A DNA stretch of 16,617 nucleotides, taken from IMG/VR virus record IMGVR_UViG_3300029913_000003, positions 192,001 through 208,617 of that record, one strand, 5' to 3'. A program made the translations under genes and the position numbers. Positions 2,079 through 16,617 of the stretch are shown here, one piece after another. Position 1 is the first letter of the stretch. Each line of letters starts with the position of its first letter. A model generated the notes under the pieces. It did not search any database and was not told the origin of the DNA. It was given only the letters and a program-made list of their open reading frames with translations. Source of the stretch: a virus.

Positions 2079-2096
2079 TATATAACGTTATATAAT
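2079..2096. promoter_or_regulatory. 18-bp perfect palindrome ttatataacgttatataa, about 50 bp upstream of the tnpA ATG. It is a candidate TnpA operator or subterminal recombination site.
   Basis: The sequence is exactly self-complementary and centred on a rare CG dinucleotide in otherwise pure A/T DNA. Its function is inferred only from its position. Confidence 0.35.
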
Positions 2097-2168
2097 TATA
2101 ATTAATAGTCTTTTATTATTTTTGTATTACATTTTCAGTTATAAATTCAATATATTTTTTCATATTTT

Positions 2169-4652
2169 TTATTCCCATCTATTATTATAAATATTTGATG
2201 TATACAATTCTTTAGTTGCATTATCAGCTAATATTAAATTATTAGAATCTTGCACTACTCGTTGTAATAATAAATTAGATTTAGATTCATCAGGAATAAC
2301 ATCATCATATATCCTTATATTTGTCAATTTTATATTAGATGAATTTATTATTATATTTTGATCAACATTAAATGTATTTAATGGTACAGTTACTCCTTCA
2401 TATTCATCAATATATTTTATTGACGCTATATTATATAAACTTGTGTCAGTTAATTTATCAGCAATTTCAGTATTTTTAACTGGTCTATATCCATTTGATG
2501 TATAATACGATATGTCATTTATATTTGTATTATCTAATATAACACTTTTATAATTAGGTGTAAACATTGTTATTTTATAATTATATCTTCTTTTAAATAA
2601 ATCTAAACTTATTGTTCTTTGTCTATTATCTAAATTTACAGTTAAACCATACCACATATTTGTTGTTAATCCTGTTATTGGTAAACTATAATTTATGTTA
2701 TTTATAGTCAATGTTATATTATTATTTGCGTAAGATAATTTATATCCTTTATTATTAATTGAATCATAGTTGTTTATAAATTCAAAATAACTTTTATTAC
2801 TAACATAATAAGAATTAAATATATTTTCATCAATTGCCTTATTTGGATCAAAACTATTATTAAAATTAAACCACACATTAAATGCTCTATTATCACTAAA
2901 ATTCAAATTTGAATCTTTATATGTATAAGTAACTGCGGTTGTACCAGAAGATAATGATGATAAATTATAATAGCTATCTGCTATTTTTATATCTTTTAAT
3001 GAATTATAGATATCTTTTTTAATTATCTCTAATTTTGGATTAACAATTAATCTATAAACTTCGTGTGTTATAGGTTTTAATTGTTTATTTGCAATTTTAT
3101 CTTCTTGTTCTCTTATTTCTCCGCCAAATAAAGAATCTATAGTATTATTATTTGTTAATGATTCAATAAGATTTTTTGATGCATTAGAAACATTAGTTTC
3201 ATTTGCAAGTTTTTCATATTTTTCAAGAACAACATTATAATAAACACCCATATACATAATATCTCTTTTTACTTGAGCATGTTTAATTCTATACATACGA
3301 TTTGCTTGACAAAAATATATAATATCTTTTTGGAATGGTCTTTTTTCTATTCCAAATGCATTATGAAATTCGTCTTTTAATATAATAACTTGAAATGTAT
3401 CCATCATATCTAACATATATTCATTTATTTGAACTTGATTATCTGGAAAATTATTTTCAGGTACAATTATTTTTATTTTTTGTGTATCTACTATATTAAA
3501 TAATTGATATTCATGTAATATACTATCTATTCCTTTACCGTCAGGATCTGTTAAATGATAATCAACTGTCCATCCAAATATTTTACCTACTGTATTTGAT
3601 AAATATGTATACCAATCTCCTATTTTTTGTCCAGCATAAGGATTAAATATGCCTTGTGATGCTGCTGTTTGAGTTGAATCTAATCCAGTTGTATTACTTT
3701 GTGAACTTAGACTTGGTATAACATTACCTGATATATAACAACTTAATCCTTTTGTCACCCAATCTTTACTATAATCTAATGGAGTTTTACTATCACCTTT
3801 ATATGATGTTATACCATTTAAACAAACTGAATTTGTACCACTATCTGTTGAATTTGAAATTGTAGTTCCAGTATTTACTGCAGGATAAGAAACTGCACAA
3901 TCCTCTCTAACTCCATATCTATTAGTTTTAAGATAATTATTATTAATATTTTGAAAATCTCCTAATAATATAATATCATAAATTTTAGATGTTGTTCCAG
4001 TATTTATTTTAGAAACTGAATACTCAACTTGTGCAAATCTAATTGGATTTATTTTTACAGTTGATATATTTTCTGTTGTTAAATTTTCCCAAGGCGTATA
4101 TGTTCTACCATTATCTTGAGTGAATCTATATTTAATTTGTAAATTATTAGTATTTGATCCATATATTTCATAACCAGTTAATTTGAAAACTTTATAAATA
4201 TCTTTTGGGGTAAATAATATAAATTCATTATCTGGTATATTAACAATTGTATCTGTTTGTTCAATATCATAAGTTCCTTCGATTACAATTGTATTTATTG
4301 TAAGTGCTGGTATTGTAGTAGTATCAGCATCAATTCTATAATAAGCTAAATTTAAATATAAGTTATTTAATGAGCAATAATCTTGTGTAATTCCTGTAAT
4401 AGGAGAATACTCACTATAACTTATACCACTTCTTGTATTGCTATAAGAAAAATATTTTTTGAAATAATGATCATTAGTTTCTCCTTTTACAATATCTGTA
4501 AATTTTGTAATTGATGATATGCTTTTTAATGGAACGATAGAAAAATTTTTAATATCACGAATTTGAGTAGATATTTCATCTGTATACGTTGGAGTACCTA
4601 ACCAACTCATTGTAAAAGTACCATCAAATTTAGGAGTGTAAATATATCTCAT
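2169..4652 (-). CDS. Hypothetical 827-aa protein rich in N, Y, T and I. It is probably a structural protein.
   Basis: This is a long uninterrupted ORF in a roughly 75% AT background. Its composition and codon usage match the neighbouring genes. I recognised no specific motif. Confidence 0.6.
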   Translation of the reverse strand: MRYIYTPKFDGTFTMSWLGTPTYTDEISTQIRDIKNFSIVPLKSISSITKFTDIVKGETNDHYFKKYFSYSNTRSGISYSEYSPITGITQDYCSLNNLYLNLAYYRIDADTTTIPALTINTIVIEGTYDIEQTDTIVNIPDNEFILFTPKDIYKVFKLTGYEIYGSNTNNLQIKYRFTQDNGRTYTPWENLTTENISTVKINPIRFAQVEYSVSKINTGTTSKIYDIILLGDFQNINNNYLKTNRYGVREDCAVSYPAVNTGTTISNSTDSGTNSVCLNGITSYKGDSKTPLDYSKDWVTKGLSCYISGNVIPSLSSQSNTTGLDSTQTAASQGIFNPYAGQKIGDWYTYLSNTVGKIFGWTVDYHLTDPDGKGIDSILHEYQLFNIVDTQKIKIIVPENNFPDNQVQINEYMLDMMDTFQVIILKDEFHNAFGIEKRPFQKDIIYFCQANRMYRIKHAQVKRDIMYMGVYYNVVLEKYEKLANETNVSNASKNLIESLTNNNTIDSLFGGEIREQEDKIANKQLKPITHEVYRLIVNPKLEIIKKDIYNSLKDIKIADSYYNLSSLSSGTTAVTYTYKDSNLNFSDNRAFNVWFNFNNSFDPNKAIDENIFNSYYVSNKSYFEFINNYDSINNKGYKLSYANNNITLTINNINYSLPITGLTTNMWYGLTVNLDNRQRTISLDLFKRRYNYKITMFTPNYKSVILDNTNINDISYYTSNGYRPVKNTEIADKLTDTSLYNIASIKYIDEYEGVTVPLNTFNVDQNIIINSSNIKLTNIRIYDDVIPDESKSNLLLQRVVQDSNNLILADNATKELYTSNIYNNRWE

Positions 4653-4707
4653 TTTTAATTATTTTATATTTCTCTTATATATAAAAAATTTAATTATAAT
4701 ATATTTT

Positions 4708-5454
4708 TTAAAAATTAACTCTTTCTTTTACTCTTATTGCATAACTTAATATTGATTCATATGTATAATAAGAATTTTTCATTTTAGGGTCTTTATATAA
4801 TTTAAAATCAGGAATAGAAGAAATATCAACTTCTAATATTACCCATTCGTCGATATTCATATTGAATAATTCTGTCTTATCATATTTATTTTTAAAAAAT
4901 TTTCTTTTTTCTGCACAAAATTCTTTAGCATCTGACAAATTGTCAGTTAAATATACTCTATCTACATCATTAGATATCATATTTTGAGATTTAGGAACTA
5001 ATCCTATTTTTTTAATTTTTTCGTAATAATATTTTGTTGTTGCATGATATAATATATCAGGTGTTCCATCAGGTACATCAAATCTTTTTTGAAATGTTAT
5101 ATTAAATATTGTATCTTTTGATATCATTATACTTTTTATTTCTAATCCATTATTATCAATTATACTAGGTTTAAAATATCCCATATTATGCATAAAACTA
5201 GTCAATTCTTTATTAAATTGTTTTTTATTTACATTTGAAATATCAATTGATAATGAAATATATCCTTCTAATTTTTTTATTTCATATTTAATATTATATG
5301 ATTTTATTAAATTATCTAATTTTTCACAAAAAAAGTCATAATCAACAGAATGAATTAATCCCTCCTTCATAGCTAAATAAAAATGATTGTGAAAATAATC
5401 TGCTTCTTCATTAAAATTTCTATATTTTTCAAAATTTTTAAACCTATCTAGCAT
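4708..5454 (-). CDS. 248-aa protein whose C-terminal half resembles the NAD-binding lobe of Tpt1/KptA RNA 2'-phosphotransferase (ADP-ribosyltransferase fold). The catalytic motifs look divergent.
   Basis: The segment ILYHATTKYYYEKIKKIGLVPKSQNMISNDVDRVYLTD lines up with E. coli KptA [32 protein letters not shown], sharing LYH.T, EIKK.GL and R..(V/Y).L. The Tpt1 signature RH and RxHxH histidines are not conserved. I am recalling this from memory and did no search. Confidence 0.4.
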   Translation of the reverse strand: MLDRFKNFEKYRNFNEEADYFHNHFYLAMKEGLIHSVDYDFFCEKLDNLIKSYNIKYEIKKLEGYISLSIDISNVNKKQFNKELTSFMHNMGYFKPSIIDNNGLEIKSIMISKDTIFNITFQKRFDVPDGTPDILYHATTKYYYEKIKKIGLVPKSQNMISNDVDRVYLTDNLSDAKEFCAEKRKFFKNKYDKTELFNMNIDEWVILEVDISSIPDFKLYKDPKMKNSYYTYESILSYAIRVKERVNF

Positions 5455-5492: not shown

Positions 5493-5524
5493 TATATAAA
5501 ATTTTGAATGATAAATTTTATATA
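5493..5524. promoter_or_regulatory. Inverted repeat (12-bp arms tatataaaattt / aaattttatata, 8-nt spacer) in the divergent intergenic region between 4708..5454(-) and 5544..6317(+). It contains the decamer AAAATTTTGA at 5498-5507.
   Basis: I verified the arms by reverse complementation. The ATG at 5508 listed in the ORF track sits in the loop, which argues that the real start is 5544. Confidence 0.4.
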
Positions 5525-5543
5525 TAAGAGAAAACATTTTTTT

Positions 5544-6317
5544 ATGGCTATAATCACCCCTAATGATCTTATTAATCCAACAGAAAAAACAATAAAGAAC
5601 TGGAATTGCTCATTTATTGCAGTTGAAGGTCCAAATATAATTGAAAAATTAAGCTTAGAAGATTTGGCTATTCCATATGAATCTCAATATAGATCGAGAA
5701 TAGTTTTAAAAGCTGGTGAATCTAATAAAATGCTTTACGGATTTATTGGTAAGGCTGTTACATTCTTAATGATAAAAGTAACTTATGATAGTTTATCTGA
5801 TCCATATTATACATATGAACAAGAAAAATATAATATAAATTATTATTTTGAAAATGATCCTATTCTTAGACCATTAAATAGATTATTAATAATGACAGGT
5901 TCTTCTGATGAAAGAATACCACAAATTTATGTGACAAATCCATTAGATTATGACGTAACATTAGATGTATTAGAAGCAACAGTTGATTCTGAATTTGATG
6001 AAGATGATGATATACCTGCTGATTATCAAATACATTATGCTATAACAAATATATCAAGTACATATTCTGGAAAAACAGATGATGAATATATAAGATGTTC
6101 TGGTACAACAGAATCAGGTTCTACATATTCATTATATTTACCGTTAGCAACTGGTACAGGAAATGTATTAACAATCAAAAATATATTAAACGGAGTTATA
6201 ACTATTTTAACACAAGATACAGATTTGATTGATGGTTTAAATTCATATGTATTAAATACTCAATATGAAGTAGTCGTGCTAATTGATGCAGGTACTGGTA
6301 TCTGGGATAAAATATAA
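5544..6317 (+). CDS. Hypothetical protein, paralogue A of a tandem pair. Its N-terminal domain is shared with 6325..7200.
   Basis: I prefer the start at 5544 (MAIITPNDL...) over the track start at 5508. The paralogue begins MAKITSNSL at an equivalent position, and 5508 lies inside a hairpin loop. The conserved blocks are IKNW..F....GP, AIPY.S.Y.SRIVL, KVTY and DPYY.YE...YNINYY......P..RLL...GS......QIY..NPLDYDV.LDV..A. Confidence 0.6.
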   Translation: MAIITPNDLINPTEKTIKNWNCSFIAVEGPNIIEKLSLEDLAIPYESQYRSRIVLKAGESNKMLYGFIGKAVTFLMIKVTYDSLSDPYYTYEQEKYNINYYFENDPILRPLNRLLIMTGSSDERIPQIYVTNPLDYDVTLDVLEATVDSEFDEDDDIPADYQIHYAITNISSTYSGKTDDEYIRCSGTTESGSTYSLYLPLATGTGNVLTIKNILNGVITILTQDTDLIDGLNSYVLNTQYEVVVLIDAGTGIWDKI

Positions 6318-6324
6318 TATAAAT

Positions 6325-7200
6325 ATGGCAAAAATAACAAGTAATAGTCTTTATGGTAAAACAAAAAGAGAAATAAAAAATTGGGGTAGAGATTTTAGAA
6401 CATCAGATGGACCTCAAACATCTTCTGTTATGAGTCTCAGTGATATTGCAATACCGTATGATTCATGTTATACATCAAGAATAGTATTACCTTCTTATAC
6501 TGAAGATTTTTTATTAAATTATGGTATAATTGAAGAATCTACTTTTTTATTATTAAAAGTTACATATAATGGTAATTATGATAATGAGAATGAAGATGCG
6601 TATGATCCATATTATTATTATGAACCAAGTACATATAATATTAATTACTATTATGATTCTAATTCAGGTATAACATATCCAATTGGAAGATTATTGCTTT
6701 TAAATGGCTCATTTCCAAATAAATTAGGACAAATTTATTTGAATAATCCATTAGATTATGATGTAGTTTTAGATGTAATGCAAGCTAATATTGAAGCTCC
6801 AATAGTTCAACCACCAAGTAGTGCAGTAACGATATCAAATTTGTATTATAGTGACATTATAACAAATCAAGTTGAATGTTATTCTTATACTGGATTAACA
6901 ACAGGATCTACTGAATTTATTATTACTGGAATTACATCTTCAATAATAAGTACAGGTTATACAATTACACAATATATAATTCCATATAATACTATTATAT
7001 CAATAAATTCAGATACATCATTATATTACATTTACATAAACACTACATCAACTTATTATACTATTAAATTTTTAACTCAATCTGATTATGAACAAGCATA
7101 TTTTAGAATAATATTCGCGTATTCATCATATACAGATGGTAATTGTAGATATTTAACTACAACAGAAACATACGATAGTGGTAATAATATAAATTGTTAA
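6325..7200 (+). CDS. Hypothetical protein, paralogue B of the tandem pair. Its N-terminal domain is conserved and its C-terminal half is unrelated.
   Basis: The same conserved blocks as 5544..6317 are present. I chose the start at 6325 (MAKITS...) rather than the track start at 6283, which overlaps the previous gene. The gap after the upstream stop codon is 7 nt. Confidence 0.6.
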   Translation: MAKITSNSLYGKTKREIKNWGRDFRTSDGPQTSSVMSLSDIAIPYDSCYTSRIVLPSYTEDFLLNYGIIEESTFLLLKVTYNGNYDNENEDAYDPYYYYEPSTYNINYYYDSNSGITYPIGRLLLLNGSFPNKLGQIYLNNPLDYDVVLDVMQANIEAPIVQPPSSAVTISNLYYSDIITNQVECYSYTGLTTGSTEFIITGITSSIISTGYTITQYIIPYNTIISINSDTSLYYIYINTTSTYYTIKFLTQSDYEQAYFRIIFAYSSYTDGNCRYLTTTETYDSGNNINC

Positions 7201-7219
7201 AAATAAAAATTAATTATAA

Positions 7220-7960
7220 ATGACTATTATATATTATAATTCTCCTATAAGTGGAACTACTTGGATTGGTAGTGGAACTACTGTACCACATAATGCATAT
7301 TTGCATTTATATCATGATAGTGTTACAGGTTGGACATTAAATAGTTTAAAACATCTATTCATTAGTGGAATAACTGGTTGCATTTCAGTGAATATACCAT
7401 TAGATAATATAACTTTTGAGTTATATGAGAAAGGTACAAATATACAATTATATGAATTAACAAAATATGGACAATATTTTATATATATTTCAATTTCAGA
7501 TTCTGTTGGAAATATAACTACATCATATATTTATAATATTGTTGTAAATGATAGTTCTCCTGAAATAATATTTAATTGTAATATTTTTAATTCAGGATTG
7601 ACAGGAAATACTATTGATTTTTCTGGAGCAACTGGTATAACATCAGGAATTAATATTTATTCTGGCGTAACATTTAATCTTTTTGAATTTGATAAAAATA
7701 TAATTAATAAAGTTGATATAATTTATAATTGTATATGCTATGTGATTGATAATATTGATTATTGTATCAATAAATATATGATAAATGTTTTAATTATAGG
7801 ATCAAATTTATTAAATAATAATGAGTATCAAGAAATTTCTATACCAGGTTATTATTGCATAAAATTATCTTTAATAAATAGTACAAATTATGAGATTGTT
7901 TATTATTTTCTTGTAGATGCTGTTTATGATCCAAATAATTATAATTCTAATATTTATTAA
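7220..7960 (+). CDS. Hypothetical 246-aa protein
   Basis: The ORF is co-directional with its neighbours and starts 19 nt after the previous stop, in a TAAATG context. I recognised no motif. Confidence 0.5.
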   Translation: MTIIYYNSPISGTTWIGSGTTVPHNAYLHLYHDSVTGWTLNSLKHLFISGITGCISVNIPLDNITFELYEKGTNIQLYELTKYGQYFIYISISDSVGNITTSYIYNIVVNDSSPEIIFNCNIFNSGLTGNTIDFSGATGITSGINIYSGVTFNLFEFDKNIINKVDIIYNCICYVIDNIDYCINKYMINVLIIGSNLLNNNEYQEISIPGYYCIKLSLINSTNYEIVYYFLVDAVYDPNNYNSNIY

Positions 7961-8013
7961 TATTATTGACCTAATAAAATAAATATATAAATTAGTAAAA
8001 ATTAAATAAATAA

Positions 8014-8631
8014 ATGAGTAAAGTAACTTTTGATGGATCAGCAAAAATAATAACTATAAATAGTGGAGTAACAAGTATTGATGTTAAAACTGATTTATAT
8101 TTAGAATGGAAGCAATGGGTATTAGAAGGAGATAATTCTAAATGGCTAGCTGCATTCAGATCATTTGGTGGTGATCCAACTACATTAAATCAAAATGCTC
8201 CAAGCTACTTTTTTTTAACTAATAATTGGATAGTTAAAATAGAAAATTTAAATGTAGCAATACAAGATAATTTATATTCAGATGATTATGATATTCCTTA
8301 TCTAAATATAAATTCTACAATATTATCAAAAAATTCTGATATACCTAGTATTGATAGTTTAACTGGTATTACAGAAACATTATCAGATATGAATAATACT
8401 ATCATAGATATTTCATTTGATGTTAAACATATATTAGGATTATCACAGCAAAATTATAGATTAAGTAATCATGTTTATGATGATGATTTTAGATTGACAT
8501 CAGTTACAATAAAATTATTTAATACTAAAACTGATTGTAATAATAATGTTAATAGTTTTGCTAATTATACAATGAATGCGGCTTATGATGATAATGGATT
8601 ATTAATTGATTATAAAGTAGTTAAAAATTAA
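8014..8631 (+). CDS. Hypothetical 205-aa protein
   Basis: This is an ORF in the same co-directional cluster. Its N-terminus KVTFDGSAKIITINSGVTSIDVKTDLYLEWKQWV looks like a globular beta-rich domain. I recognised no confident family. Confidence 0.5.
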   Translation: MSKVTFDGSAKIITINSGVTSIDVKTDLYLEWKQWVLEGDNSKWLAAFRSFGGDPTTLNQNAPSYFFLTNNWIVKIENLNVAIQDNLYSDDYDIPYLNINSTILSKNSDIPSIDSLTGITETLSDMNNTIIDISFDVKHILGLSQQNYRLSNHVYDDDFRLTSVTIKLFNTKTDCNNNVNSFANYTMNAAYDDNGLLIDYKVVKN

Positions 8632-8639
8632 TTCTTATT

Positions 8640-8978
8640 ATGATTAATCACATAACAACAAATTTAGTAACTAAAGGTTTATTGAATATTTCTAATATTA
8701 CAAAAGGAATGATACAAATTAAGTATCAAATAATATTTAGAAAAAGAGGAGGATCGAGTGCTAATGTTGTTCATTCATATGATAATGATGAAGCATTCTA
8801 TGATGAACTTAGAAAGCATAAAGAAGAAGAAATTGACTACATAAAAGTGTTTGTTGATTGGAAAGGAGCAAAATTAAAAGCATTTAAAAAAATTGAAGTT
8901 AAATTATTAAAAGAACATATTGAAGCAGAAATATTATTAAAAACAAATAAAAAATTCACAGTAGAAATAATAAAATAA
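8640..8978 (+). CDS. Hypothetical 112-aa basic protein
   Basis: The ORF starts 8 nt after the previous stop, and a hairpin follows it immediately. Confidence 0.45.
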   Translation: MINHITTNLVTKGLLNISNITKGMIQIKYQIIFRKRGGSSANVVHSYDNDEAFYDELRKHKEEEIDYIKVFVDWKGAKLKAFKKIEVKLLKEHIEAEILLKTNKKFTVEIIK

Positions 8979-9008
8979 AAAAGATGTAATTTATATTACA
9001 TCTTTTTT
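8977..9008. terminator. Perfect AT-rich stem-loop between the convergent genes 8640..8978(+) and 9023..9583(-). The stem is up to 14 bp (core aagatgtaat/attacatctt) and the loop is ttat.
   Basis: I verified the arms by reverse complementation. There are only two G:C pairs and the T-run is part of the stem. This looks more like the AT-rich 3'-end hairpins reported for Mimiviridae transcripts than a classical rho-independent terminator. Either way it is a bidirectional 3'-end signal candidate. Confidence 0.5.
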
Positions 9009-9022
9009 TATAAATATTTAAG

Positions 9023-9583
9023 TTATTTAAATGAATCAAATTTCATTATACTGGAAACTACTTTTTCTTCTTTTTTAGATTTTTCTGTTTCTTCATCAAC
9101 ATCTTCTTCAACAATTTCTATTTTTTTCTCAAAAGCTGCTTCCAATTTTGAGATTGTGTCATTTTTCTCGACTACTTTTTCAACTTTTTTTTCAACTTTT
9201 TTTTCAACAATTGGTTTATTTTCAAATTTTGTTTCTGATACAGATATTCTTGGTTTATTTGAAGGTTTTTGAATTTCAGATACCATTTCTTCTATTTTAA
9301 TAGAAGCTTTACTTTTTATTTCAAAATTATCTTGCCACACTGGAAAATATAAATCTTCTGATATAATTTCAAATTTTATTTTTCCATTATCACCTTTTTC
9401 ATATAGACTCAATTTAGGAATTTCAAATCTACAAATATCATTTTCAATCTTACCTATTAAAAGAACATTTTTATTTTCTTTTGTCATTAATATTAATCTT
9501 GGCTCAACATCATTTACGTTAATGCCATCACTATTTATTTTAAATTTTAAAATATCATTCTCTTTATTGTTAAATAAATCCAT
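9023..9583 (-). CDS. Hypothetical 186-aa protein with a K/E-rich acidic-basic repetitive C-terminal tail (VEKKVEKKVEKVVEK)
   Basis: It is the only minus-strand ORF in this stretch. Its own AT-rich upstream region is 9584-9688. Its C-terminal tail is low-complexity. Confidence 0.5.
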   Translation of the reverse strand: MDLFNNKENDILKFKINSDGINVNDVEPRLILMTKENKNVLLIGKIENDICRFEIPKLSLYEKGDNGKIKFEIISEDLYFPVWQDNFEIKSKASIKIEEMVSEIQKPSNKPRISVSETKFENKPIVEKKVEKKVEKVVEKNDTISKLEAAFEKKIEIVEEDVDEETEKSKKEEKVVSSIMKFDSFK

Positions 9584-9603: not shown

Positions 9604-9651
9604 ATTCTATATATTAATAAAAAAATATAGAATTATATATTAAAATTTTGA
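9604..9651. promoter_or_regulatory. Divergent promoter region. A 9-bp inverted repeat (attctatat / atatagaat, 12-nt spacer) lies at 9604-9633, and a second copy of the decamer AAAATTTTGA lies at 9642-9651.
   Basis: The arms are verified. The decamer sits 47 nt upstream of the 9689 ATG, and the identical decamer sits 46 nt upstream of the 5544 ATG. Confidence 0.35.
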
Positions 9652-9688
9652 TCTTCTTTTTTTAATATATAATAAAAAATTAAGTTTA

Positions 9689-11047
9689 ATGTCAACTGGA
9701 GTAATACTTCCAAATAATTCGTTAATAGCAGATTTGACCAGTAAATATTGGCTTTATTTTTCAGATAATTTTGGAAGTATAAATGCTACACTTATTAATG
9801 ATTCTAATGGACATCCAATAACAGGATATATATCTGGAAGAACCTCAATTTATTATGATTTTGATTATTCTGGTAATACTCAAGAAGGTAGAATACCAAA
9901 CACTGATGTAGATTTTACTGCTGTTGCCATTGGGCAAAATATCGCTAGATATTCTATAATTAAAGGTGTAATCACAAGTGGTTTAACAAATATAATTTTA
10001 ACTTCGGATACAGATTGGAATTATTCTGGTAATACTCAAGGAACAAGTGGCACATCAGGAATAGATGGAGAAAATGGTACATCAGGAGCTTCTGGTAGTG
10101 AAACTCTTGAACTTACAATTACTGGAGTTCAAGATGGTATAAATAAGAATTTTATATTATCTAGCGGAGTCAGTTATATCCACATGTTTTATGTTGATGG
10201 TCAATTACAAACATATAATAACGATTATTATGTTTCTGGATTAACTTTAACATTTATTAAAATACCACCTAAAGAAAGTGATATTTTAAGATTATTCATC
10301 ACACAGCATGGCGGTGTTTTTGGTACATCAGGAACAGATGGAACATCAGGAACAGATGGAACATCAGGAGCTTCTGGTAGTGAGTCTCTTGAAATTACAA
10401 TTACTGGAATTCAAGATGGTATAAATAAGAATTTTATATCATCAAGTGGTATTAGTGAAAATCATATGTTTTATGTTGATGGTCAATTACAAACATATAA
10501 TAACGATTATTATGTTTCTGGATTAACTTTAACATTTATTAAAAATCCTCCTAAAGAGAGTGATATTTTAAGATTGTTTATTACTCAGCATGGCGGTGTT
10601 TTTGGTACATCAGGAACAAACGGTACAAGCGGATCATCAGGGTCATCAGGTAGTTCAGGGTCATCAGGTAGTTCAGGTTCATCAGGTAGTTCTGGAACAA
10701 ATGGTACATCAGGTATAAATGGAGATATTATAAACGAAATTGATATTTCTGGAATTCAAGATGGAGTAAATAAAAATTTTATATTATCAAATGAAATTGT
10801 AAGTGAAAATCATATGTTTTATGTAGATGGACAATTACAAACATATAATAATGACTATTATATCTCTGGATTAACTTTAACATTTATTAAAATTCCGCCT
10901 AAATATAATTATATTTTAAGATTGTTTGGTAGTATAGGCACAAATTATCATAATGGAATTACTATTAATCAAAATATTGTTGTTGATAATTATGGAACAA
11001 TAAAAACATTAAATATTGTTAATGGTTTGATAATATCAATAACATAA
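9689..11047 (+). CDS. Collagen-like repeat protein of 452 aa. It has G-X-Y tracts (GTSGTDGTSG...) alternating with three globular modules of about 94 aa each. I read it as a fibre/fibril component.
   Basis: G-X-Y runs occur at about 10040-10100, 10321-10385 and 10606-10735, including (GSS)8. The module ITG(V/I)QDG(I/V)NKNFI.S....S..HMFYVDGQLQTYNNDYY(V/I)SGLTLTFIK.PPK...ILRLF is repeated three times. Confidence 0.7.
   Translation: MSTGVILPNNSLIADLTSKYWLYFSDNFGSINATLINDSNGHPITGYISGRTSIYYDFDYSGNTQEGRIPNTDVDFTAVAIGQNIARYSIIKGVITSGLTNIILTSDTDWNYSGNTQGTSGTSGIDGENGTSGASGSETLELTITGVQDGINKNFILSSGVSYIHMFYVDGQLQTYNNDYYVSGLTLTFIKIPPKESDILRLFITQHGGVFGTSGTDGTSGTDGTSGASGSESLEITITGIQDGINKNFISSSGISENHMFYVDGQLQTYNNDYYVSGLTLTFIKNPPKESDILRLFITQHGGVFGTSGTNGTSGSSGSSGSSGSSGSSGSSGSSGTNGTSGINGDIINEIDISGIQDGVNKNFILSNEIVSENHMFYVDGQLQTYNNDYYISGLTLTFIKIPPKYNYILRLFGSIGTNYHNGITINQNIVVDNYGTIKTLNIVNGLIISIT
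10132..10940 (+). repeat. Three internal direct repeats within the collagen-like gene. Copies 1 and 2 are almost identical at the nucleotide level, and copy 3 is diverged.
   Basis: For example, caagatggtataaataagaattttata occurs at 10132 and again at 10414, a period of about 282 bp. The third copy is near 10756. There is also a 9-bp-unit microsatellite (ggtagttca/ggttcatca) at about 10630-10700. Confidence 0.85.
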
Positions 11048-11098
11048 ATTATCAATAACATAAATTATCAATAACATAAATTATCAATAACATAATTT
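11035..11098. repeat. 16-bp tandem repeat atcaataacataaatt in four copies, the last with one mismatch. It overlaps the stop codon of 9689..11047 and ends 35 bp before the fibre gene ATG.
   Basis: I counted the repeat directly: 11035-11050, 11051-11066, 11067-11082 and 11083-11098. Confidence 0.9.
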
Positions 11099-11132
11099 TA
11101 TATATAATATAAATAAAAATAAATTAAAAATA

Positions 11133-14100
11133 ATGAGTACAAGATTAGATGCGAATGATAGATTAAAAGGATTAAGTTTTAAAAAACCTTGTATCGTTGC
11201 GACATTAGAAAATGTAAATTTAACAGGGTCAACTAATGTAATTGATGGAGTATCTTTAAATTTAAATGATAGAATATTAGTCATAAATCAGATAGATCAG
11301 ATAGATAATGGTATTTATATTGTTTCAAATGTTGGTACAGGTTCTGATGGCGTTTTATTACGAGCAAATGATTTTTCTACAAGTGATGATATATTTGCTG
11401 GAATTAACATTTATATTTTATCAGGAGATACATATAATGATAGTTATTTCATATTAAATACCGAAAATCCTATATTAGATATTACTCCGTTATTTTTCTC
11501 TAATAAAAAAATGTTAGATACTCAAAATGTAAGTAATAATCAAGTATTATTATATAATAATAATTCAATAATTGGTTATACAGGACTAACATATGATGGT
11601 AATACATTAGATATAAATGGTAATGTTAATATAACAGGTAATACAACAGTAATTGGAAATATTATTTCAAATACAATATCTGTAACAGGAGGAACTTCAA
11701 CTCAATTTTTAAAAGCTGATGGATCTATTGATTCAACATCATATACTGATTTTAATTTATTTACTGGTGAAACATTTGATAGAATAAGTGGTGATACATA
11801 TTTGAATAATTTATTAACAGGTGAAACATTTGATAGATTATCAGGTGATACATTTTTAAATGAATTATTAACAGGTGAAACATTTGATAGAATTTCAGGA
11901 GATACATTTTTAACTGAATTATTAACTGGTGAAACATTTGATAGAATTTCTGGAGACACAGTATTAAATGATTTAATTACAGGATTAACTTCAACAGTTA
12001 ATAATAATTATAATTTATTAACAGGTGAAACATTTAATAGAATAAGTGGAGATACAGTATTAAATGATTTAATTGAAGAGTTATCAATAAATGCTCAAAA
12101 TCAAATGAATAATGAAATTAATAATAGAATTTCAGGAGATACATTATTGAATAATTTACTAACTGGTGAAACATTTGATAGAATAAGCGGAGACACTTTT
12201 TTAAATGAATTATTAACAGGTGAAACATTTGATAGAATAAGCGGAGACACAATATTAAATAATTTAATTACTGGATTGACATCAACAGTTACGGATAATT
12301 ATAATTTATTAACAGGTGAAACATTTAATAGAATTTCAGGAGACACATTTTTAAATAATTTAATTACAGGATTAACACAGAATATTATAAATAATTATGT
12401 ACCTTATACTGGATCTACATCAAATATAGACTTAGGATATAATAATTTAACAGCTAGTTCAATTATTAAATCTGGTGGTACATCTAATCAATTTTTAAAG
12501 GCTGATGGAACTATTGATATAACTACATATTCAAATACTGGTCATAGTCATTATCAATTATTTCAACCAAATGGTACAACTCCTTTTGTCTATACAGATA
12601 ATGGTGGGTCATTTCATATTGATGGAAATATTATTCAATCAGGATCAACATATGAAACTCATACAGAACAAATATACACTACTAAAGATTATATTTATTT
12701 GAGAAGTGGAGCAACTTCTGGATTACCTGATGGACAATATGCAGGATTTACAGCTAAATTATATGACGGATCTAATGATGGTCAATTAGTCTTTGATAAT
12801 AAAGGCTTTGCAAGAGTTGGAGACGTAGGTAGTTTATTGAAATTAGCAGCTATTCAAGAAACACCTACAGATACACAATTTACTTACTATGATGCTGCAA
12901 CTTATTCATTAAAAACACGTGCTTTTTTAAGTGGTGATATTACAACGGCTTTAGGATTTACTCCTTATAACGCAACTAACCCATCTAATTATATAACAAT
13001 TGGATCAGTTCCTGTTGTAGCTACAACAACTCCTTTAATAAATGGAATTGCTGCAATTGGAGCAAGTGGTAAATGGGCTGATGGAGCACATGTTCATCCA
13101 GTTGATACTTCAAGACAAGTTGCATTAAGCGGAACTGGATTTGTAAAAAGCACATCAGGAACTATTAGTTATGACACTTCTACTTATATTCCAGTCACAG
13201 GAAATACAAATACAATAAACTTAGGTGTTAATAATTTAACAGTAGATACAAATACTCTGTTTGTTGATTCTGTTCATCACTATTTAGGTATTACTACAAA
13301 TAATCCTAATGCGTCAGTTGATATTGGAGGTTTTGGTACACCTTCTGATTATGGAGGAGGAACTGGTACGGCTAAAGTTTTAATTGCTGATAACGCGACA
13401 GGGTCATCTGGTGTTCAAATGTATAATTCTAATTCAGGAACAGCCTCTGATTTTAGATTTGCCATTTTTAATAATAATAAAAATGAATATATGGCATTTT
13501 CAACGCCAGCCGATACTAATACTAATACTTTATTTGGATTTGCAAGAAGTACATCTAATTATTTATTTAATAATTTAAATGGAGTAGGTGGCACTCTTAG
13601 AAATTTAACTATTGGTACGGTTGGAAGTTCTGACCTTATATTTGGAACTAACAATGTAGAAAATTTAAGAATAAAATCTGGAGGTAATGTCGGGATTGGA
13701 ACTACTACTCCAGGAACGTTATTAGAAATAAGTAACTCTGCAAATATATCTATTAATTCAATTTTAAGGATTAGAGACATTAATACTGGTGGTTCATATT
13801 TTGATATCGGTTCTGCTAATGGTAGTAGTGGATTATTCATTAATCAAGGCTCTACTAAGATAATGCAAATTAGAAGTAGTGGAAATGTAGGATTTGGAAC
13901 TTCATCAACCCCTAACGCAAGATTTAATATTTATAAAAGTGGAATAATTGATTATTTCAATATTACAAGTTCAGTTGATGGTGATGTGATGGTTATCTTA
14001 AATAATGGCAACGTCGGGATTGGAGCTACCACTCCAGACCAAAAATTATCAGTTTGGGGTGGTTCACAAAATATTATTGATCCAACAACTTTAGGTTCTG

Positions 14101-16617
14101 AAAGCTTAACTAATGGTACGTTATCTGGTGGAACTTCTTGGACTGCAACAAATGATTGTACTTTAGTATCTAATAACGCAACTTGGACTTTTTCTGGTGG
14201 AACTGCTTCAACTCTTACACAAACGAATGCTAATTTAACAGTTGCAGGAGTAGGATATAGATGGTATAAATTTGTTTATACAGTATCAGCTATTTCTGGA
14301 ACTCCATCTGCATCAATAACAACATCTTTTGGCGGATCAACAACTTCTCTTACTATAACAGCTGGAGCACAAACTACTTATTTTAAAGCAGCTACTACAC
14401 CTACTGATTTTGTTATTACTTCTACTTTGGTATCAGGACAGACATTCACATTGGGTACGTTTTCGTTAAAAGAAGTTCAAGGTGGAAATTTAATAACTGG
14501 TGGATTGTTAACTGGTGGAGGTACAACTGGTATTAAAGTTTTAGCAAATGGAAATGTTGGAATTGGAACAACTACTCCTGGACAATTACTTGAAGTAAAT
14601 AATGGGCACATAAATGTTTTAAATACCAATTATGGACTTCTATTAGCTTCTAATCAAGCTCTAACTAGGAATGGAGCAAAACTTGTACTTGCTAACTCAA
14701 GTGCATTTACTTCTATGGGGTTGAGTACCGTAGGAGTTGAAAGAATTTCTATTGATAGTTCAGGGAACGTAGGTATTGGAGTAACTCCAACGTCTATGCT
14801 TACTCAAAAATCTACAACCGCATTAGAATCTGCTACGTTAGGAACTGAATTAACAGCTTCTGGAGATACTTGGGGATTAGCAACAACTAAAAGCATAACT
14901 GCTTTTGCAAATTATGGATCTACTGTTGCTGGAACAGTTGAAGTAACTTCAAATGCTCATGGATTTCCAGCTGGAACAACAACTAATGTTGTAATATCAG
15001 GAACTACTAATTATAATGGTACATACACAATAACATATATTGATGTTAATAACTTTTATATTACGGCAACTTGGGTATCGAACGATGCAACTGGAACTGC
15101 AACTCAAACTGGTTGGTCTGGAACTTATGCTGGTGGATACACACACTCAACTGGAAATACAACAGCATTAACTGATTCTACATTGGTTCCAGTGGTTGGT
15201 AATTTATACCAAATAACTTATACAGTAACAAATAGGACGACAGGAACATTTACGATTACATTCGGCGGAGTTACATCTTATACTTATTCAGCAACAGGCT
15301 CATATGGTCCTAAAGCTGCAACAGTAGGAACATTAACTATTGCTCCAACGACTGATTTTAATGGCACAATAATACTTTCAATTAAATTAATTGCATCATA
15401 TTCTCCTATTTATGTTATTCAAGATAGTTCTTCTGCTAATACATTAGAAATTCGTAGTTCTTTAAATACTTCAGTAAATTTATTCATAGGTAAAAACTCT
15501 GGAAGATATAATACAACAGGTATTAATAATACTTCACTTGGATCTGGAGCGTTACCGATAAATTCAACTGGATTTAATAATGTTGCAATTGGTGGTAGTG
15601 CTATGCAAGCGAATACAGCTGGATTTTCTAATATCTCTATAGGTTTTAATTCCCTTTTAAGCAATACTGTCGGTTATGCCAATACATCAATTGGTAATGC
15701 AACTCTACAAAATAATTCTATTGGTTATTATAACACAGCAGTTGGTATAAGTGTTCTTGTCACTAACACAGCTGGGTATTATAATACAGGCATTGGAGCA
15801 AGCGCGCTTAGTTCAAATTCTACTGGATATTATAACACTGCGATAGGAATTAATTCTATTAATTTAAATACTACTGGTTTTTATAATACTGCATTAGGTG
15901 GTAATTCTCTTAGTTCAAATTCAGTTGGATCATACAATACTGCTGTTGGCTATTCATCGATAAGTAATATTGTATCTTCATATAATACTGCTATTGGTTA
16001 TATATCTGGTCGTTATATAACTGGAGGGGTAACAACTAATATCAATTCTTATAATTCTGTCTATATTGGAGCAAATACAATGGCATCTGCTGATGGCAAT
16101 TCAAATGAAATAGTAATTGGATATAACGCAACTGGTAATGGAAGTAACTCAGTAACATTAGGTAATACATTAATTACTAAAACTATTTTACAGGGTAATA
16201 CTGGTATTGGCGGATATACAACTCCTTTACATTTCTTAGATAATACTCAAACTCAGAATCAACGCACTGTTTATGGATTAAACGTGGTGATGAATGCTAC
16301 TAATCTTCAACAAGATATAGTATCTACAGGTAATGATGAACCACTTTTAAATCAATACTATGCCTGGAAATTTACCGCAAGTGCTGCAAACACAATGGGT
16401 TCGTTATCAGTTAGATTGAAGAAAATAGGTACTGTTACAAATACAACAGATTATATTAGACTTAAATTATATTCAGATACAGGTACAGCCCCAAATGCTT
16501 TATTATACACTTCTGATCAGGTTAAAATGGGCACATTAACGACTTCTTATGTTGAATACTTGTTTGGTGGAGACTATACGATGGTTAATGGTACTTCATA
16601 TTGGTTAGTAGTTGAAA
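11133..16617 (+). CDS. Giant fibre/adhesin-like protein of more than 1828 aa. It is 3'-truncated by the window edge. It carries tail-fibre-like repeats and YadA-head-like beta-helical repeats.
   Basis: The ATG is at 11133 (MSTRLDANDRLKGL...) and the frame stays open to the last base, verified at 13380 and 16560. All ORFs the track lists in this span are antisense or off-frame shadows. The fibre contains 18-aa tandem repeats LTGETFDRISGDTxLNxL at about 11755-12390, five SGNVGIGTTTP(G/D)..L-type motifs from 13681 to 14790, and N-T-A-(I/V)-G 14-15-aa repeats at about 15520-16000. The composition is G/T/N/S-rich throughout. Confidence 0.8.
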   Translation, partial: MSTRLDANDRLKGLSFKKPCIVATLENVNLTGSTNVIDGVSLNLNDRILVINQIDQIDNGIYIVSNVGTGSDGVLLRANDFSTSDDIFAGINIYILSGDTYNDSYFILNTENPILDITPLFFSNKKMLDTQNVSNNQVLLYNNNSIIGYTGLTYDGNTLDINGNVNITGNTTVIGNIISNTISVTGGTSTQFLKADGSIDSTSYTDFNLFTGETFDRISGDTYLNNLLTGETFDRLSGDTFLNELLTGETFDRISGDTFLTELLTGETFDRISGDTVLNDLITGLTSTVNNNYNLLTGETFNRISGDTVLNDLIEELSINAQNQMNNEINNRISGDTLLNNLLTGETFDRISGDTFLNELLTGETFDRISGDTILNNLITGLTSTVTDNYNLLTGETFNRISGDTFLNNLITGLTQNIINNYVPYTGSTSNIDLGYNNLTASSIIKSGGTSNQFLKADGTIDITTYSNTGHSHYQLFQPNGTTPFVYTDNGGSFHIDGNIIQSGSTYETHTEQIYTTKDYIYLRSGATSGLPDGQYAGFTAKLYDGSNDGQLVFDNKGFARVGDVGSLLKLAAIQETPTDTQFTYYDAATYSLKTRAFLSGDITTALGFTPYNATNPSNYITIGSVPVVATTTPLINGIAAIGASGKWADGAHVHPVDTSRQVALSGTGFVKSTSGTISYDTSTYIPVTGNTNTINLGVNNLTVDTNTLFVDSVHHYLGITTNNPNASVDIGGFGTPSDYGGGTGTAKVLIADNATGSSGVQMYNSNSGTASDFRFAIFNNNKNEYMAFSTPADTNTNTLFGFARSTSNYLFNNLNGVGGTLRNLTIGTVGSSDLIFGTNNVENLRIKSGGNVGIGTTTPGTLLEISNSANISINSILRIRDINTGGSYFDIGSANGSSGLFINQGSTKIMQIRSSGNVGFGTSSTPNARFNIYKSGIIDYFNITSSVDGDVMVILNNGNVGIGATTPDQKLSVWGGSQNIIDPTTLGSESLTNGTLSGGTSWTATNDCTLVSNNATWTFSGGTASTLTQTNANLTVAGVGYRWYKFVYTVSAISGTPSASITTSFGGSTTSLTITAGAQTTYFKAATTPTDFVITSTLVSGQTFTLGTFSLKEVQGGNLITGGLLTGGGTTGIKVLANGNVGIGTTTPGQLLEVNNGHINVLNTNYGLLLASNQALTRNGAKLVLANSSAFTSMGLSTVGVERISIDSSGNVGIGVTPTSMLTQKSTTALESATLGTELTASGDTWGLATTKSITAFANYGSTVAGTVEVTSNAHGFPAGTTTNVVISGTTNYNGTYTITYIDVNNFYITATWVSNDATGTATQTGWSGTYAGGYTHSTGNTTALTDSTLVPVVGNLYQITYTVTNRTTGTFTITFGGVTSYTYSATGSYGPKAATVGTLTIAPTTDFNGTIILSIKLIASYSPIYVIQDSSSANTLEIRSSLNTSVNLFIGKNSGRYNTTGINNTSLGSGALPINSTGFNNVAIGGSAMQANTAGFSNISIGFNSLLSNTVGYANTSIGNATLQNNSIGYYNTAVGISVLVTNTAGYYNTGIGASALSSNSTGYYNTAIGINSINLNTTGFYNTALGGNSLSSNSVGSYNTAVGYSSISNIVSSYNTAIGYISGRYITGGVTTNINSYNSVYIGANTMASADGNSNEIVIGYNATGNGSNSVTLGNTLITKTILQGNTGIGGYTTPLHFLDNTQTQNQRTVYGLNVVMNATNLQQDIVSTGNDEPLLNQYYAWKFTASAANTMGSLSVRLKKIGTVTNTTDYIRLKLYSDTGTAPNALLYTSDQVKMGTLTTSYVEYLFGGDYTMVNGTSYWLVVE
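11755..12390 (+). repeat. 54-bp (18-aa) tandem repeat array inside the fibre gene. Copies of ttaacaggtgaaacatttgatagaat(t/a)(t/a)caggagatacattttt are interrupted by two NNYNLLTGETFNRISGDT variants.
   Basis: I read the array directly. It is flanked by two roughly 60-nt related segments encoding (T/S)GGTS(T/N)QFLKADG(S/T)ID at about 11680-11740 and about 12470-12530. Confidence 0.85.

Follow-up and report, generated by a model that had tools for sequence, protein, structure and literature searches.

A predicted two-directional terminator hairpin at a convergent gene junction of a very AT-rich, Mahaphage-related huge phage

The perfect AT-rich hairpin at 8977..9008 is very probably a bidirectional intrinsic terminator, belonging to a huge phage related to the Mahaphage group that probably infects a Bacteroidota-type host which initiates translation without Shine-Dalgarno (SD) sequences. 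The window, meaning the whole stretch of 16,617 nucleotides that was analysed (positions 192,001 to 208,617 of the IMG/VR record IMGVR_UViG_3300029913_000003), has a GC content of 22% and carries the hairpin at the convergent junction of genes 8640..8978 (plus strand) and 9023..9583 (minus strand). Termination itself, the RNA polymerase involved, the function of the promoter-like boxes, and the identity of the host are what we infer. A signal that looks like that of a giant virus can be accounted for by ordinary bacterial-type termination, together with the known SD-independent translation of the Bacteroidota type. The hairpin and the two units that meet at it comprise the following features.

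8977..9008, either strand: perfect inverted repeat of 14 bp with a 4-nt loop, predicted terminator hairpin
8983..9002: core stem-loop GATGTAAT-TTAT-ATTACATC, 8 bp with 2 G:C pairs
9003..9009, plus strand: T7 run, read directly from the sequence, U-tract for the rightward transcript ending after 8640..8978
8977..8982, minus strand: A6 run on the plus strand, giving a U6 tract for the leftward transcript past 9023..9583 and continuing as UUUUUUAUUUUAUUAUUU
5544..8978, plus strand: rightward gene block closed by the hairpin
9023..9583, minus strand: 186-aa gene transcribed leftward into the hairpin, with 76 metagenome homologues

The arms of the hairpin, AAAAAAGATGTAAT at 8977..8990 and ATTACATCTTTTTT at 8995..9008, form 14 perfect pairs around the loop TTAT (8991..8994), with G:C in 2 of the 14. 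The TAA stop of 8640..8978 contributes the first two bases of the stem, and 14 nt separate the stop of 9023..9583 from the opposite stem end. Folded as RNA, the hairpin reaches -13.2 kcal/mol on the plus strand and -13.1 kcal/mol on the minus strand, with z-scores of -5.6 and -5.3, respectively, and 0 of 200 shuffles were equally stable. In first-order Markov simulations of the whole window (n = 200), 0.005 perfect stems of at least 14 bp are expected, as against one observed, which bears out the perfect 14-bp hairpin that a sequence-only reading of this DNA had placed at the convergent 3' ends. On the plus strand the stem, whether it is taken to end at 9002 or at 9008, runs into the T7 run, and on the minus strand it runs into U6, followed by AUUUUAUUAUUU. 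The core is the portion that can fold with the U-tract still in the RNA:DNA hybrid; its free energy is -6.4 kcal/mol in plus-strand RNA and -6.0 kcal/mol in minus-strand RNA, within the span of -5.3 to -10.5 that the family shows at other junctions. A terminator scan that demands three G:C pairs missed the hairpin and called no more sites in the window than in shuffles, and neither Rfam at gathering thresholds nor a tRNA scan gave a match in the window. Several palindromes of 8 and 9 bp also lie inside genes of the window.

The family was surveyed in 11 non-redundant related loci, amounting to 190 kb, in which perfect hairpins of at least 9 bp were counted and genes were called with our own ORF heuristic. 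The density of hairpins is 14.2 per kb for convergent spacers, 1.3 in same-strand spacers, 0.9 in divergent spacers, and 0.17 in coding sequence. A hairpin is present at 15 of the 29 convergent junctions; 11 of the 29 have gaps shorter than 15 nt (8 of them overlaps), and 4 with enough room have no hairpin. The 1st percentile of folding energy in coding controls is reached by 12 of 18 convergent gaps of at least 15 nt, as against 5 of 59 in the same-strand class and 1 of 27 in the divergent class. Of the 75 short same-strand gaps, not one has a strong hairpin, and of the 59 longer ones 5 have. Same-strand neighbours lie a median of 6 nt apart, with overlap in 47 of 134 pairs, and this tight spacing with its overlaps indicates polycistronic operons.

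The case from polarity is statistical and based on the family, as a perfect palindrome such as 8977..9008 has an A/T polarity that is not assignable to one strand: the order A-run/stem/T-run is found 27 times at gene 3' ends versus 3 for T-run/stem/A-run, compared with 0 versus 6 at divergent junctions and 15 versus 13 in coding sequence (Fisher's exact test, p = 4e-5). This polarity puts a U-tract at the end of both transcripts. The 186-aa protein is 80-94% identical in five relatives (L040, L041, L043, L044, and L045), all of which keep the GATGTAAT stem, and the loops vary, being ATAA in the window (read on the strand of the 186-aa gene) and TTAA, a T-rich loop, or AACA in relatives. In one close relative, A has changed to G, and the sense RNA of the 186-aa gene retains a G:U pair there. 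The more distant orthologous junctions carry unrelated stems between their A- and T-runs, including GCTGCAA, GCTGATCA, GCCTC, CCTCTAAA, CCTTC, and CCTTCT. An A-run/stem/T-run hairpin stands at the same place in 7 of 15 orthologous 3' ends, and only where the next gene converges across a gap of 15-60 nt. Across orthologous junctions, the shape of the hairpin is conserved and its sequence is not. The exact stem pattern is absent from the scanned IMG/VR viral contigs, and elsewhere it was found only at the orthologous junction of close relatives.

Judged by the homologues of its genes, the window is the virion-gene (neck, fibre) region of a very AT-rich huge bacteriophage related to Mahaphage. 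Three genes are central to this assignment.

2169..4652, minus strand: virion protein of 827 aa, combining lectin-type jelly rolls with a domain similar to the T4 neck proteins (gp13/gp14 type)
9689..11047, plus strand: collagen-like tail-fibre protein with three repeated modules
11133..16617, plus strand: fibre or tail-spike gene that continues past the window edge, encoding more than 1828 aa

The homologues of the 827-aa protein tie the window to the huge-phage clade. Relatives that are 61-86% identical lie on contigs of up to 711 kb, with a 79%-identical homologue on the 711 kb contig and another homologue on a contig of 501 kb. Homologues are also encoded by the curated huge phages LR756501 to LR756504 and LR745206, at 39% identity over 100% of the length for LR756501 and LR756503, and at 29-34% identity over 83-98% of the length for LR756502, LR745206, and LR756504. 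The Mahaphage genomes with these homologues measure 634-735 kb, and the full-length 39% match includes the one of 735 kb. In at least LR756501 and LR756504, the divergent gene adjoining the 827-aa homologue is itself a homologue of 5544..6317 and 6325..7200, and the window thus has both virion genes and local gene order in common with genomes of more than 630 kb. Phages of Tenacibaculum and Chryseobacterium have weaker matches to the 827-aa protein, in genes labelled 'neck protein'. A fold search with its AlphaFold model matched T4 neck/portal-neck-tail chains (gp13/gp14-type neck proteins), and PDB sequences searched with a profile of this protein family gave no match. The fibre genes match PHROG tail-spike and tail-fibre families, the same contig also encodes a UvsW-type helicase and an M15 peptidase, and an identical TnpB is found on a contig of 346 kb. 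Ten flanking proteins of relatives were scanned against PHROG, and none matched a capsid, portal, or terminase family. Megablast of the window against phage records yielded only a 200-nt match, to the IS607 transposase of Campylobacter phage CP220, and single-sequence pattern scans of IMG/VR returned nothing for the 205-aa protein and one locus only for the 186-aa protein.

The cargo had been described as a collagen-like protein and a GNVGIGTTTP/YadA-like fibre. The collagen repeat is recognized by Pfam (PF01391, E 2e-9) and motifs of the GNVGIGTTTP type occur four times in the fibre gene, and the YadA-like part of the description finds no Pfam YadA or Hep_Hag match in the fibre cargo. The rightward block consists of 5544..6317 (257 aa), 6325..7200, 7220..7960, 8014..8631, and 8640..8978, with spacers of 7, 19, 53, and 8 nt, none of which contains a hairpin. 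An ORF start at 5508 is probably wrong and should be replaced by the ATG at 5544; gene calls on near-identical contigs give the 257-aa product that begins at this ATG. The gene map otherwise agrees with that of the sequence-only reading, including the convergent junction. The standard code yields a tight gene map that is 97% coding. Reading TGA, TAG, or TAA as sense was tried and rejected, the gene map not being improved, and under code 4 (TGA as sense) the tnpA frame becomes slightly longer with all other genes unchanged. TGA is a true stop codon here, which answers the suggested check of TGA usage.

For the host, we infer a Bacteroidota-type, SD-independent bacterium. The lack of SD sequences reported at eleven starts is confirmed, with GGAG, GAGG, or AGGA upstream of 0 of the 11 in the window, as are the two TAAATG starts, at 7220 and 8014; the upstream sequences, described as pure A/T, are almost but not wholly so. 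SD motifs precede approximately 4% of 191 genes in close relatives and approximately 2-3% of 210 genes in Mahaphage loci. The leaders of the relatives have a frequency of A of 0.6-0.73 at positions -10 to -18, with no more than a slight excess of A at position -3 (0.51-0.58). Bacteroidetes are a phylum naturally without SD sequences (PMC6847099), with which the SD scarcity and the A-rich leaders agree (PMC6847099; PMC9723704), and Bacteroidetes are the predicted hosts of Mahaphage genomes larger than 634 kb (PMC7162821). An AGGAGG before one small gene in relatives, apparently a conserved strong SD, was rejected as a functional SD because it falls within the 3'-terminal codons (..LGGYK*) of an upstream gene that overlaps the small one. 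The MAG labels of homologous contigs were also considered as a source for the host and rejected, as they conflict (Cellvibrionaceae, Saccharofermentanales, Trichloromonas, Ignavibacteria, and Bacilli). At present, several of the homologous huge-phage contigs stand in bacterial MAGs whose taxa are unrelated.

Short boxes upstream of genes are candidates for the promoters of these units.

5518..5527, plus strand: candidate promoter box TTATATATAA, 16 nt before ATG 5544, candidate start of the rightward unit
9607..9616, minus strand: candidate promoter box TAATATATAG, 23 nt before ATG 9583, candidate start of the leftward unit
4675..4684, minus strand: candidate promoter box TTATATATAA, 22 nt upstream of the start codon (ATG) of the 827-aa neck-like gene
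7982..7990, plus strand: candidate promoter box AATATATAA, 23 nt before ATG 8014, possible internal promoter of the rightward block
9663..9672, plus strand: candidate promoter box TAATATATAA, 16 nt upstream of the start codon (ATG) of the collagen-like gene
11098..11107, plus strand: candidate promoter box TTATATATAA, 25 nt upstream of the start codon (ATG) of the fibre gene

The TTATATATAA box is palindromic, and the one at 5518..5527 is found at the same place in eight related loci (L005, L006, L007, L009, L010, L011, L013, and L017). Genes of the Mahaphage loci are repeatedly preceded by TATATTTG, which agrees with TAnnTTTG, the -7 box of Bacteroidetes sigma-A. The close AT-rich clade is without this recurrent box and has TTATATATAA instead; TAnnTTTG is not enriched there, occurring at 2.43 per kb in intergenic versus 2.41 per kb in coding sequence, and a sigma-70 promoter scan of the window gave fewer sites than shuffles. 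The recurrent TTATATATAA box represents a testable promoter candidate for an uncultured lineage of huge phages. Back-to-back promoter boxes also form a palindrome at 5493..5524.

At 8977..9008, a stem-loop leads directly into a U-rich tract on both strands, it sits where a transcription unit ends, and its class is enriched at gene ends with a U-tail polarity, all of which is expected of an intrinsic terminator. The stem is not G+C-rich and stable, with two G:C pairs in 14 and a core of about -6 kcal/mol, and the hairpin may be a weak or factor-assisted terminator. As proposed, two converging units would share it, the rightward one running through 5544..8978 and the leftward one being the single gene 9583..9023. 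A TTATATATAA box specific to the phage, 15-26 nt upstream of start codons, would probably direct the start of transcription, and translation would begin without SD on A-rich, unstructured leaders. RNA of either strand would form the 8-bp core GAUGUAAU/AUUACAUC, directly followed by 6 or 7 U, and the weak rU:dA hybrid, together with hairpin formation, would release the transcript. After release, pairing of the A-run with the U-run would complete the 14-bp stem, which would also shield the 3' end. The terminator would stop the antisense transcription of each unit into the other. In a further version, which we consider unlikely, AT-rich hairpins would be too weak alone and would need a phage factor or a modified polymerase, forming with TTATATATAA and the SD-free leaders a phage-specific expression code; if true, this code would be a convergent counterpart, in a virus of bacteria, to the hairpin rule of mimiviruses.

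It is also doubtful that the hairpin is an element of phage RNA processing or stability, acting as an RNase III site or a block to 3'-exonucleases, with termination taking place elsewhere or via Rho. The length of the 14-bp duplex is sufficient for recognition of the RNase III type, and the duplex would shield the 3' end; as a terminator, the core stem is weak, and the G+C-based scan makes no terminator call. However, the T-run that comes right after the stem throughout the family is a hallmark of intrinsic termination that a stability hairpin does not need, and the enrichment is specific to convergent junctions. The two roles are not exclusive, since a terminator hairpin stabilizes the 3' end as well.

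A function at the level of DNA, whether as the target of a dimeric protein, in recombination or replication, or as a small mobile palindrome, is very unlikely. The perfect symmetry would suit it, and palindromes resembling DNA sites exist elsewhere (5493..5524, and the T-run/stem/A-run elements at divergent junctions), but what is kept between orthologous junctions is the pairing and the A/T runs and not the stem sequence, which a protein site would keep. The data contain neither a sequence motif common to many of these palindromes nor copies away from junctions. The placement is linked to transcript ends, and the restriction of the exact stem to one orthologous junction of close relatives shows that it is not a dispersed repeat.

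The terminator reading also has to be weighed against a giant eukaryotic virus, in which the palindrome would be a cut site for a viral RNase III-like enzyme before polyadenylation, under the Mimiviridae 'hairpin rule'. IS607-type transposase pairs are known in giant viruses too, and they fit this explanation, as do upstream regions without SD. The genome is AT-rich, and the palindrome at gene 3' ends is AT-rich and unconserved in sequence, as in mimiviruses (PMC4402537). The explanation is nevertheless highly improbable, with homologues of the 827-aa protein running across curated huge phages (full-length in the 735 kb genome), a T4 neck-like domain in that protein, and fibre genes that match phage tail-fibre and tail-spike families. 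Operon packing and gene overlaps are incompatible with monocistronic translation of the eukaryotic type, and most same-strand genes have no hairpin behind them, where the rule would have one after the great majority of genes. The strict A-run/T-run polarity would be unnecessary for RNase III recognition or for a rule of structure only, and the upstream boxes are TTATATATAA, not the mimivirus AAAATTGA. No NCLDV core genes were seen within the approximately 30 kb of genome examined. The eukaryotic-virus-like signals of the sequence-only reading are therefore not sustained by the operon packing, the few same-strand hairpins, and the polarity; of its two options, the phage of an SD-independent host is upheld by the homologues, the fold, and the fibre families, and the giant virus is not. 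A chance palindrome is barely credible, as 22% GC does make palindromes likelier and several of 8 or 9 bp lie within genes, but stems of this length are expected 0.005 times per window, no shuffle folds as well, and the stem is kept in five relatives despite a varying loop.

A hairpin of this kind shows that terminator finders which demand G+C-rich stems miss terminator-like elements in extremely AT-rich phages, for which the A-run/stem/T-run polarity and the enrichment at convergent junctions are better criteria. Additionally, the absence of SD along with such hairpins provides a cheap hint of host range for unbinned huge-phage contigs.

Among known systems, Byrne and colleagues reportedly described in 2009 the Mimiviridae 'hairpin rule' for the formation of transcript 3' ends. 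Under this rule, a poly(A) polymerase and an RNase III-like enzyme of the virus take part, and polyadenylation happens within the hairpin (Priet et al. 2015, PMC4402537). Both cases show AT-rich palindromes at gene 3' ends in a large AT-rich viral genome, without sequence conservation, whereas here a phage with operons has hairpins chiefly at convergent junctions and with an obligatory A-run/T-run polarity. Genes for RNase III or poly(A) polymerase were found neither in the window nor in L046 (approximately 30 kb). Mahaphage (Al-Shayeb et al. 2020, PMC7162821) likewise has 827-aa homologues, no SD, and A-run/stem/T-run hairpins, but its loci have a GC content of 27-34% versus 22-28% for the window and its close relatives, and its protein identity to the window is only 29-39%. 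SD-independent initiation in Bacteroidia (Baez et al. 2019, PMC6847099) is matched by the 2-4% of genes with SD and by the A-rich leaders. It differs in the A at position -3, which is just slightly enriched here. The late promoter of phage T4 is TATAAATA, which is read by gp55. The boxes of the window resemble it as short A/T-only elements at a fixed short distance before virion genes, in a phage that also has a T4-like neck and UvsW, although the sequence differs, being the palindromic TTATATATAA here. Lastly, the bidirectional intrinsic terminators of bacteria and phages also have a hairpin followed by a U-run on both strands between converging genes, with free stem sequence, kept structure, and enrichment at the ends of units; their textbook stem is far less AT-rich than that of the window, and the hairpin at 8977..9008 is most likely of this already known, two-directional type.

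The hairpin at 8977..9008 is formed by two arms, 8977..8990 and 8995..9008, which pair perfectly over 14 bp around a TTAT loop, with two G:C pairs only. The sequence-only reading had placed a 14-bp hairpin at the convergent 3' ends of two genes, and its position is exact: the stem begins within the TAA stop of 8640..8978, and a 14-nt gap separates its other end from the stop of 9023..9583. The RNA folding energy is -13.2 kcal/mol for the plus strand and -13.1 for the minus strand (z-scores -5.6 and -5.3), and Markov simulations of the window give 0.005 perfect stems of at least 14 bp expected per window. With the standard bacterial code the coding fraction of the 16.6 kb is 97%, and no alternative code improved the gene map. 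GC rises from about 22% at the left to 33-36% within the last gene. Rfam and tRNA scans of the window returned no matches. The genes are as follows.

1..1392, minus strand, TnpB-like protein, truncated at the window edge
1425..2027, minus strand, IS607-type TnpA (MerR helix-turn-helix and serine resolvase)
2169..4652, minus strand, 827-aa protein
4708..5454, minus strand, 248-aa protein
5544..6317, 6325..7200, 7220..7960, 8014..8631 and 8640..8978, plus strand, rightward five-gene block
9023..9583, minus strand, 186-aa protein
9689..11047, plus strand, collagen-like protein
11133..16617, plus strand, fibre gene, over 1828 aa and running past the window edge

The DNA is that of a phage and not of a nucleocytoplasmic large DNA virus. 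Five curated huge-phage genomes (LR756501-LR756504 and LR745206) encode homologues of the 827-aa protein, which matches the 735 kb genome (LR756501/LR756503) over its full length at 39% identity and the others over 83-98% of its length at 29-34%. The lengths of these genomes, 634, 636, 642 and 735 kb, are those given by Al-Shayeb et al. 2020 for the Mahaphage clade, with predicted Bacteroidetes hosts (PMC7162821). At least in LR756501 and LR756504, the divergent neighbour of the 827-aa homologue is a homologue of 5544..6317 and 6325..7200. Nearer relatives of the 827-aa protein (61-86% identity) are abundant in metagenomes, on contigs of 330, 501 and 711 kb, and weaker matches include "neck protein" genes of Tenacibaculum and Chryseobacterium phages and gp88 of Sphingomonas phage PAU. 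Its AlphaFold model (29-sequence alignment, mean pLDDT 70) matches chains of the T4 portal-neck-tail and gp13/gp14 neck complexes (E 7e-6 to 2e-5; target-normalised TM-score 0.47-0.56), as well as lectin-type jelly rolls. For the fibre gene, matches include Flavobacterium, Prochlorococcus and Roseobacter phage genes for tail spikes and tail fibres, as well as PHROG 4636 (3e-20); for the collagen-like protein they include PHROG tail-fibre families. Beyond the window, L046, an 86 kb contig of 99.7% identity to it, encodes a GNAT acetyltransferase, an ExoX-like protein, an M15 peptidase and a UvsW-type helicase.

The collagen repeats and the GNVGIGTTTP-type motifs noticed earlier are real, the latter occurring four times in the fibre. 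Further fibre repeats are an 18-aa unit (LLTGETFDRISGDTFLNE) in about ten copies at aa 205-415, and a block of YNTAIG-type repeats (aa 1470-1690), the portion matching phage tail-spike families. The collagen-like protein consists of three repeated modules (282-nt repeat, 90% identity) with G-x-x runs between them; the same region of L046 (382..1740) is split between two ORF calls, of 193 and 219 aa. L046 differs there in length by about 32 nt, which reflects either genuine variation or misassembly of the repeat. A 16-nt unit, TATCAATAACATAAAT, stands five times in tandem (11034..11114), reaching from the 3' end of the collagen-like gene as far as the fibre gene's promoter-like box. Genes 5544..6317 and 6325..7200 encode paralogous proteins (about 45% identity across the first 160 residues), and the 7220..7960 gene has one to three additional partial copies in relatives; 5544..7960 is a virion gene set duplicating locally.

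The left end, 1..2126 with a junction at about 2127, belongs to an IS607-family element (L046 9402..11996) encoding TnpA and a 533-aa TnpB, the latter present in the window as 1..1392. The element interrupts a GNAT acetyltransferase gene at about its 18th codon; this gene lies immediately downstream of the 827-aa gene. L021, a 99.3%-identical contig, keeps the empty site (5250..5330) with the 142-aa gene intact. The identical TnpB occurs on at least 17 contigs, at the same insertion site in all four places examined. At the tnpA/tnpB junction, a 36-nt tandem duplication (1386..1459) is single copy in L046, so that the two genes overlap there; in contigs L047-L049 they are 33 nt apart, as in the window.

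The junction hairpin is conserved. Five close relatives with 80-94% identity in the 186-aa protein (L040, L041, L043, L044, L045) share this convergent junction and its GATGTAAT stem. Read along the sense strand for the 186-aa protein, the loop is ATAA in the window and TTAA, T-rich or AACA in the relatives, and an A-to-G change in one stem gives a G:U pair on that gene's transcript. Distant orthologues of the 186-aa gene, recovered through an alignment of its homologues, have hairpins 3' of the stop with unrelated stems (GCTGCAA, GCTGATCA, GCCTC, CCTCTAAA, CCTTC, CCTTCT), each flanked by an A-run and a T-run. These are present where the next gene converges across a gap of 15-60 nt; among the same orthologues there is no hairpin where both genes overlap or the following gene runs in the same direction. 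Core stems in this junction set range from -5.3 to -10.5 kcal/mol, and that of the window (-6.4 and -6.0) falls within the range. Selection acts on hairpin shape and flanking runs and not on sequence.

The same class recurs in a census of 11 non-redundant close loci (190 kb; genes called by an ORF heuristic). Perfect stems of at least 9 bp with loops of 3-8 nt reach 14.2 per kb in convergent spacers, 1.3 in same-strand spacers, 0.9 in divergent spacers and 0.17 in coding sequence, and are found at 15 of the 29 convergent junctions. A folding-energy threshold set at the 1st percentile of coding-sequence controls (-12.5 kcal/mol) is reached, among gaps of at least 15 nt, by 12/18 convergent, 5/59 same-strand and 1/27 divergent gaps. 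The layout is stereotyped: 4-7 consecutive A, then a short stem that includes some G:C pairs, its loop, and 4-7 consecutive T (for example AAAAAAGAATCTTAATTTAAGATTCTTTTTT, AAAAACCTCTTAAAAGAGGTTTTT). Across all non-redundant loci, A-run/stem/T-run outnumbers T-run/stem/A-run by 27 to 3 at the 3' ends of genes, counting convergent together with same-strand junctions, against 0 to 6 at divergent junctions and 15 to 13 inside genes (Fisher's exact p = 4e-5). Only the former polarity places a U-tail on both transcripts, which favours an intrinsic terminator, where a U-tail is needed, over a purely structural signal, where it is not.

The best explanation for the hairpin is that it serves a huge and extremely AT-rich Mahaphage-related phage as a bidirectional intrinsic terminator. 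A rightward unit starting at about 5530 and a leftward unit starting at about 9600 would both end at it. Since the G+C of the stem is unusually low, termination may be weak or factor-assisted. A G+C-based terminator scan did not detect the hairpin; such scans fail on genomes this AT-rich. Two other palindrome types occur in the relatives. T-run/stem/A-run palindromes (L007 5890..5917, L009 13975..14016) are almost confined to divergent junctions and may be promoter-region DNA sites. A long palindrome, GAATTAAAGATTAAA...TTTAATCTTTAATTC, with stems of 18-23 bp, lies at convergent junctions (L006 18025..18064, L007 10199..10252) and differs from the terminator class in lacking A/T runs and in its conserved sequence.

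Upstream of genes in the close clade, the nearer AT-rich relatives, the most over-represented word is a palindromic box with the consensus TTTTATATATAA(a/g)nAAAAA. TATATATA is found in 48 of 105 upstream regions (74 occurrences, 3.5 expected), its position peaks 15-24 nt before the ATG, and 38/191 genes have the box 8-32 nt upstream. The boxes are likely promoters. They resemble the T4 late promoter, TATAAATA. Six window genes are preceded by one.

4675..4684, box of the 827-aa gene
5518..5527, box of 5544..6317
7982..7990, box of 8014..8631
9607..9616, box of the 186-aa gene
9663..9672, box of the collagen-like gene
11098..11107, box of the fibre gene

The second-best perfect palindrome of the window (5493..5524; 12 bp, 8-nt loop, divergent region) is two such boxes back-to-back (AAATTTTATATA), a pair that relatives also have where the 827-aa gene and its neighbour diverge. 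Inside the palindrome is an ATG, at 5508, that is probably not the true start; gene calls on near-identical contigs give 257 aa, matching the ATG at 5544. The 248-aa gene has only a sub-threshold Pfam match to Tpt1/KptA RNA 2'-phosphotransferase (E 0.0096). It is found in the window lineage (L021, L046) and missing from all other relatives, where the 827-aa gene directly adjoins its divergent neighbour; it looks like a recent insertion that brought its own copy of the box.

In mimiviruses, where AAAATTGA is the early promoter, a palindrome terminates essentially every monocistronic transcript, and polyadenylation follows once a viral RNase III-like enzyme has cleaved it (PMC4402537). Here hairpins stand only at the ends of same-strand runs, which extend up to 10 genes with a median spacing of 6 nt and 47/134 overlapping pairs; such close packing is that of operons with internal translation starts, a prokaryotic feature. 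The Mimiviridae hairpin rule is rejected on this packing and this confinement. The TAAATG starts pointed out earlier do exist, at 7220 and 8014, and are trivial, since TAA is the dominant stop (153/194 genes) and spacers are short.

The claim that Shine-Dalgarno (SD) motifs are missing also held: none of the 11 window starts has an upstream GGAG, GAGG or AGGA. At -20 to -4 these words precede about 4% of genes in the close clade (of 191) and about 2-3% in the Mahaphage loci (of 210), and A is enriched to 0.6-0.73 at -10 to -18. AGGAGG is conserved 6-8 nt ahead of a small ORF (77-107 aa) near the UvsW helicase gene (L046 19243..19275, L005 about 19085..19115, and equivalent sites in L006, L008, L010 and L017). 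These genomes avoid SD elsewhere. The motif coincides with the final codons (..LANILGGYK*) of the upstream gene, which overlaps the ORF, and may reflect protein-coding conservation, a real if rare SD, or the two together. Contigs carrying the 827-aa homologues (L037, L038, L039; the proteins P0096, P0118) are deposited within bacterial MAGs and are probably mis-binned phage; their labels (Cellvibrionaceae, Saccharofermentanales, Trichloromonas, Ignavibacteria, Bacilli) conflict and give no host information. We infer from relatedness and SD avoidance that the SD-free starts reflect a Bacteroidota-type host; for the close clade these two carry the argument, as no enrichment of a TAnnTTTG-type box was found there. 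In the Mahaphage loci TATATTTG recurs from a few to 30 nt ahead of many genes and conforms to the Bacteroidetes -7 box, TAnnTTTG. Likewise, the SD scarcity and A-rich upstream regions of the phage genes match the Bacteroidetes, which are naturally without SD and in which upstream adenines and low structure tune initiation (PMC6847099; PMC9723704).
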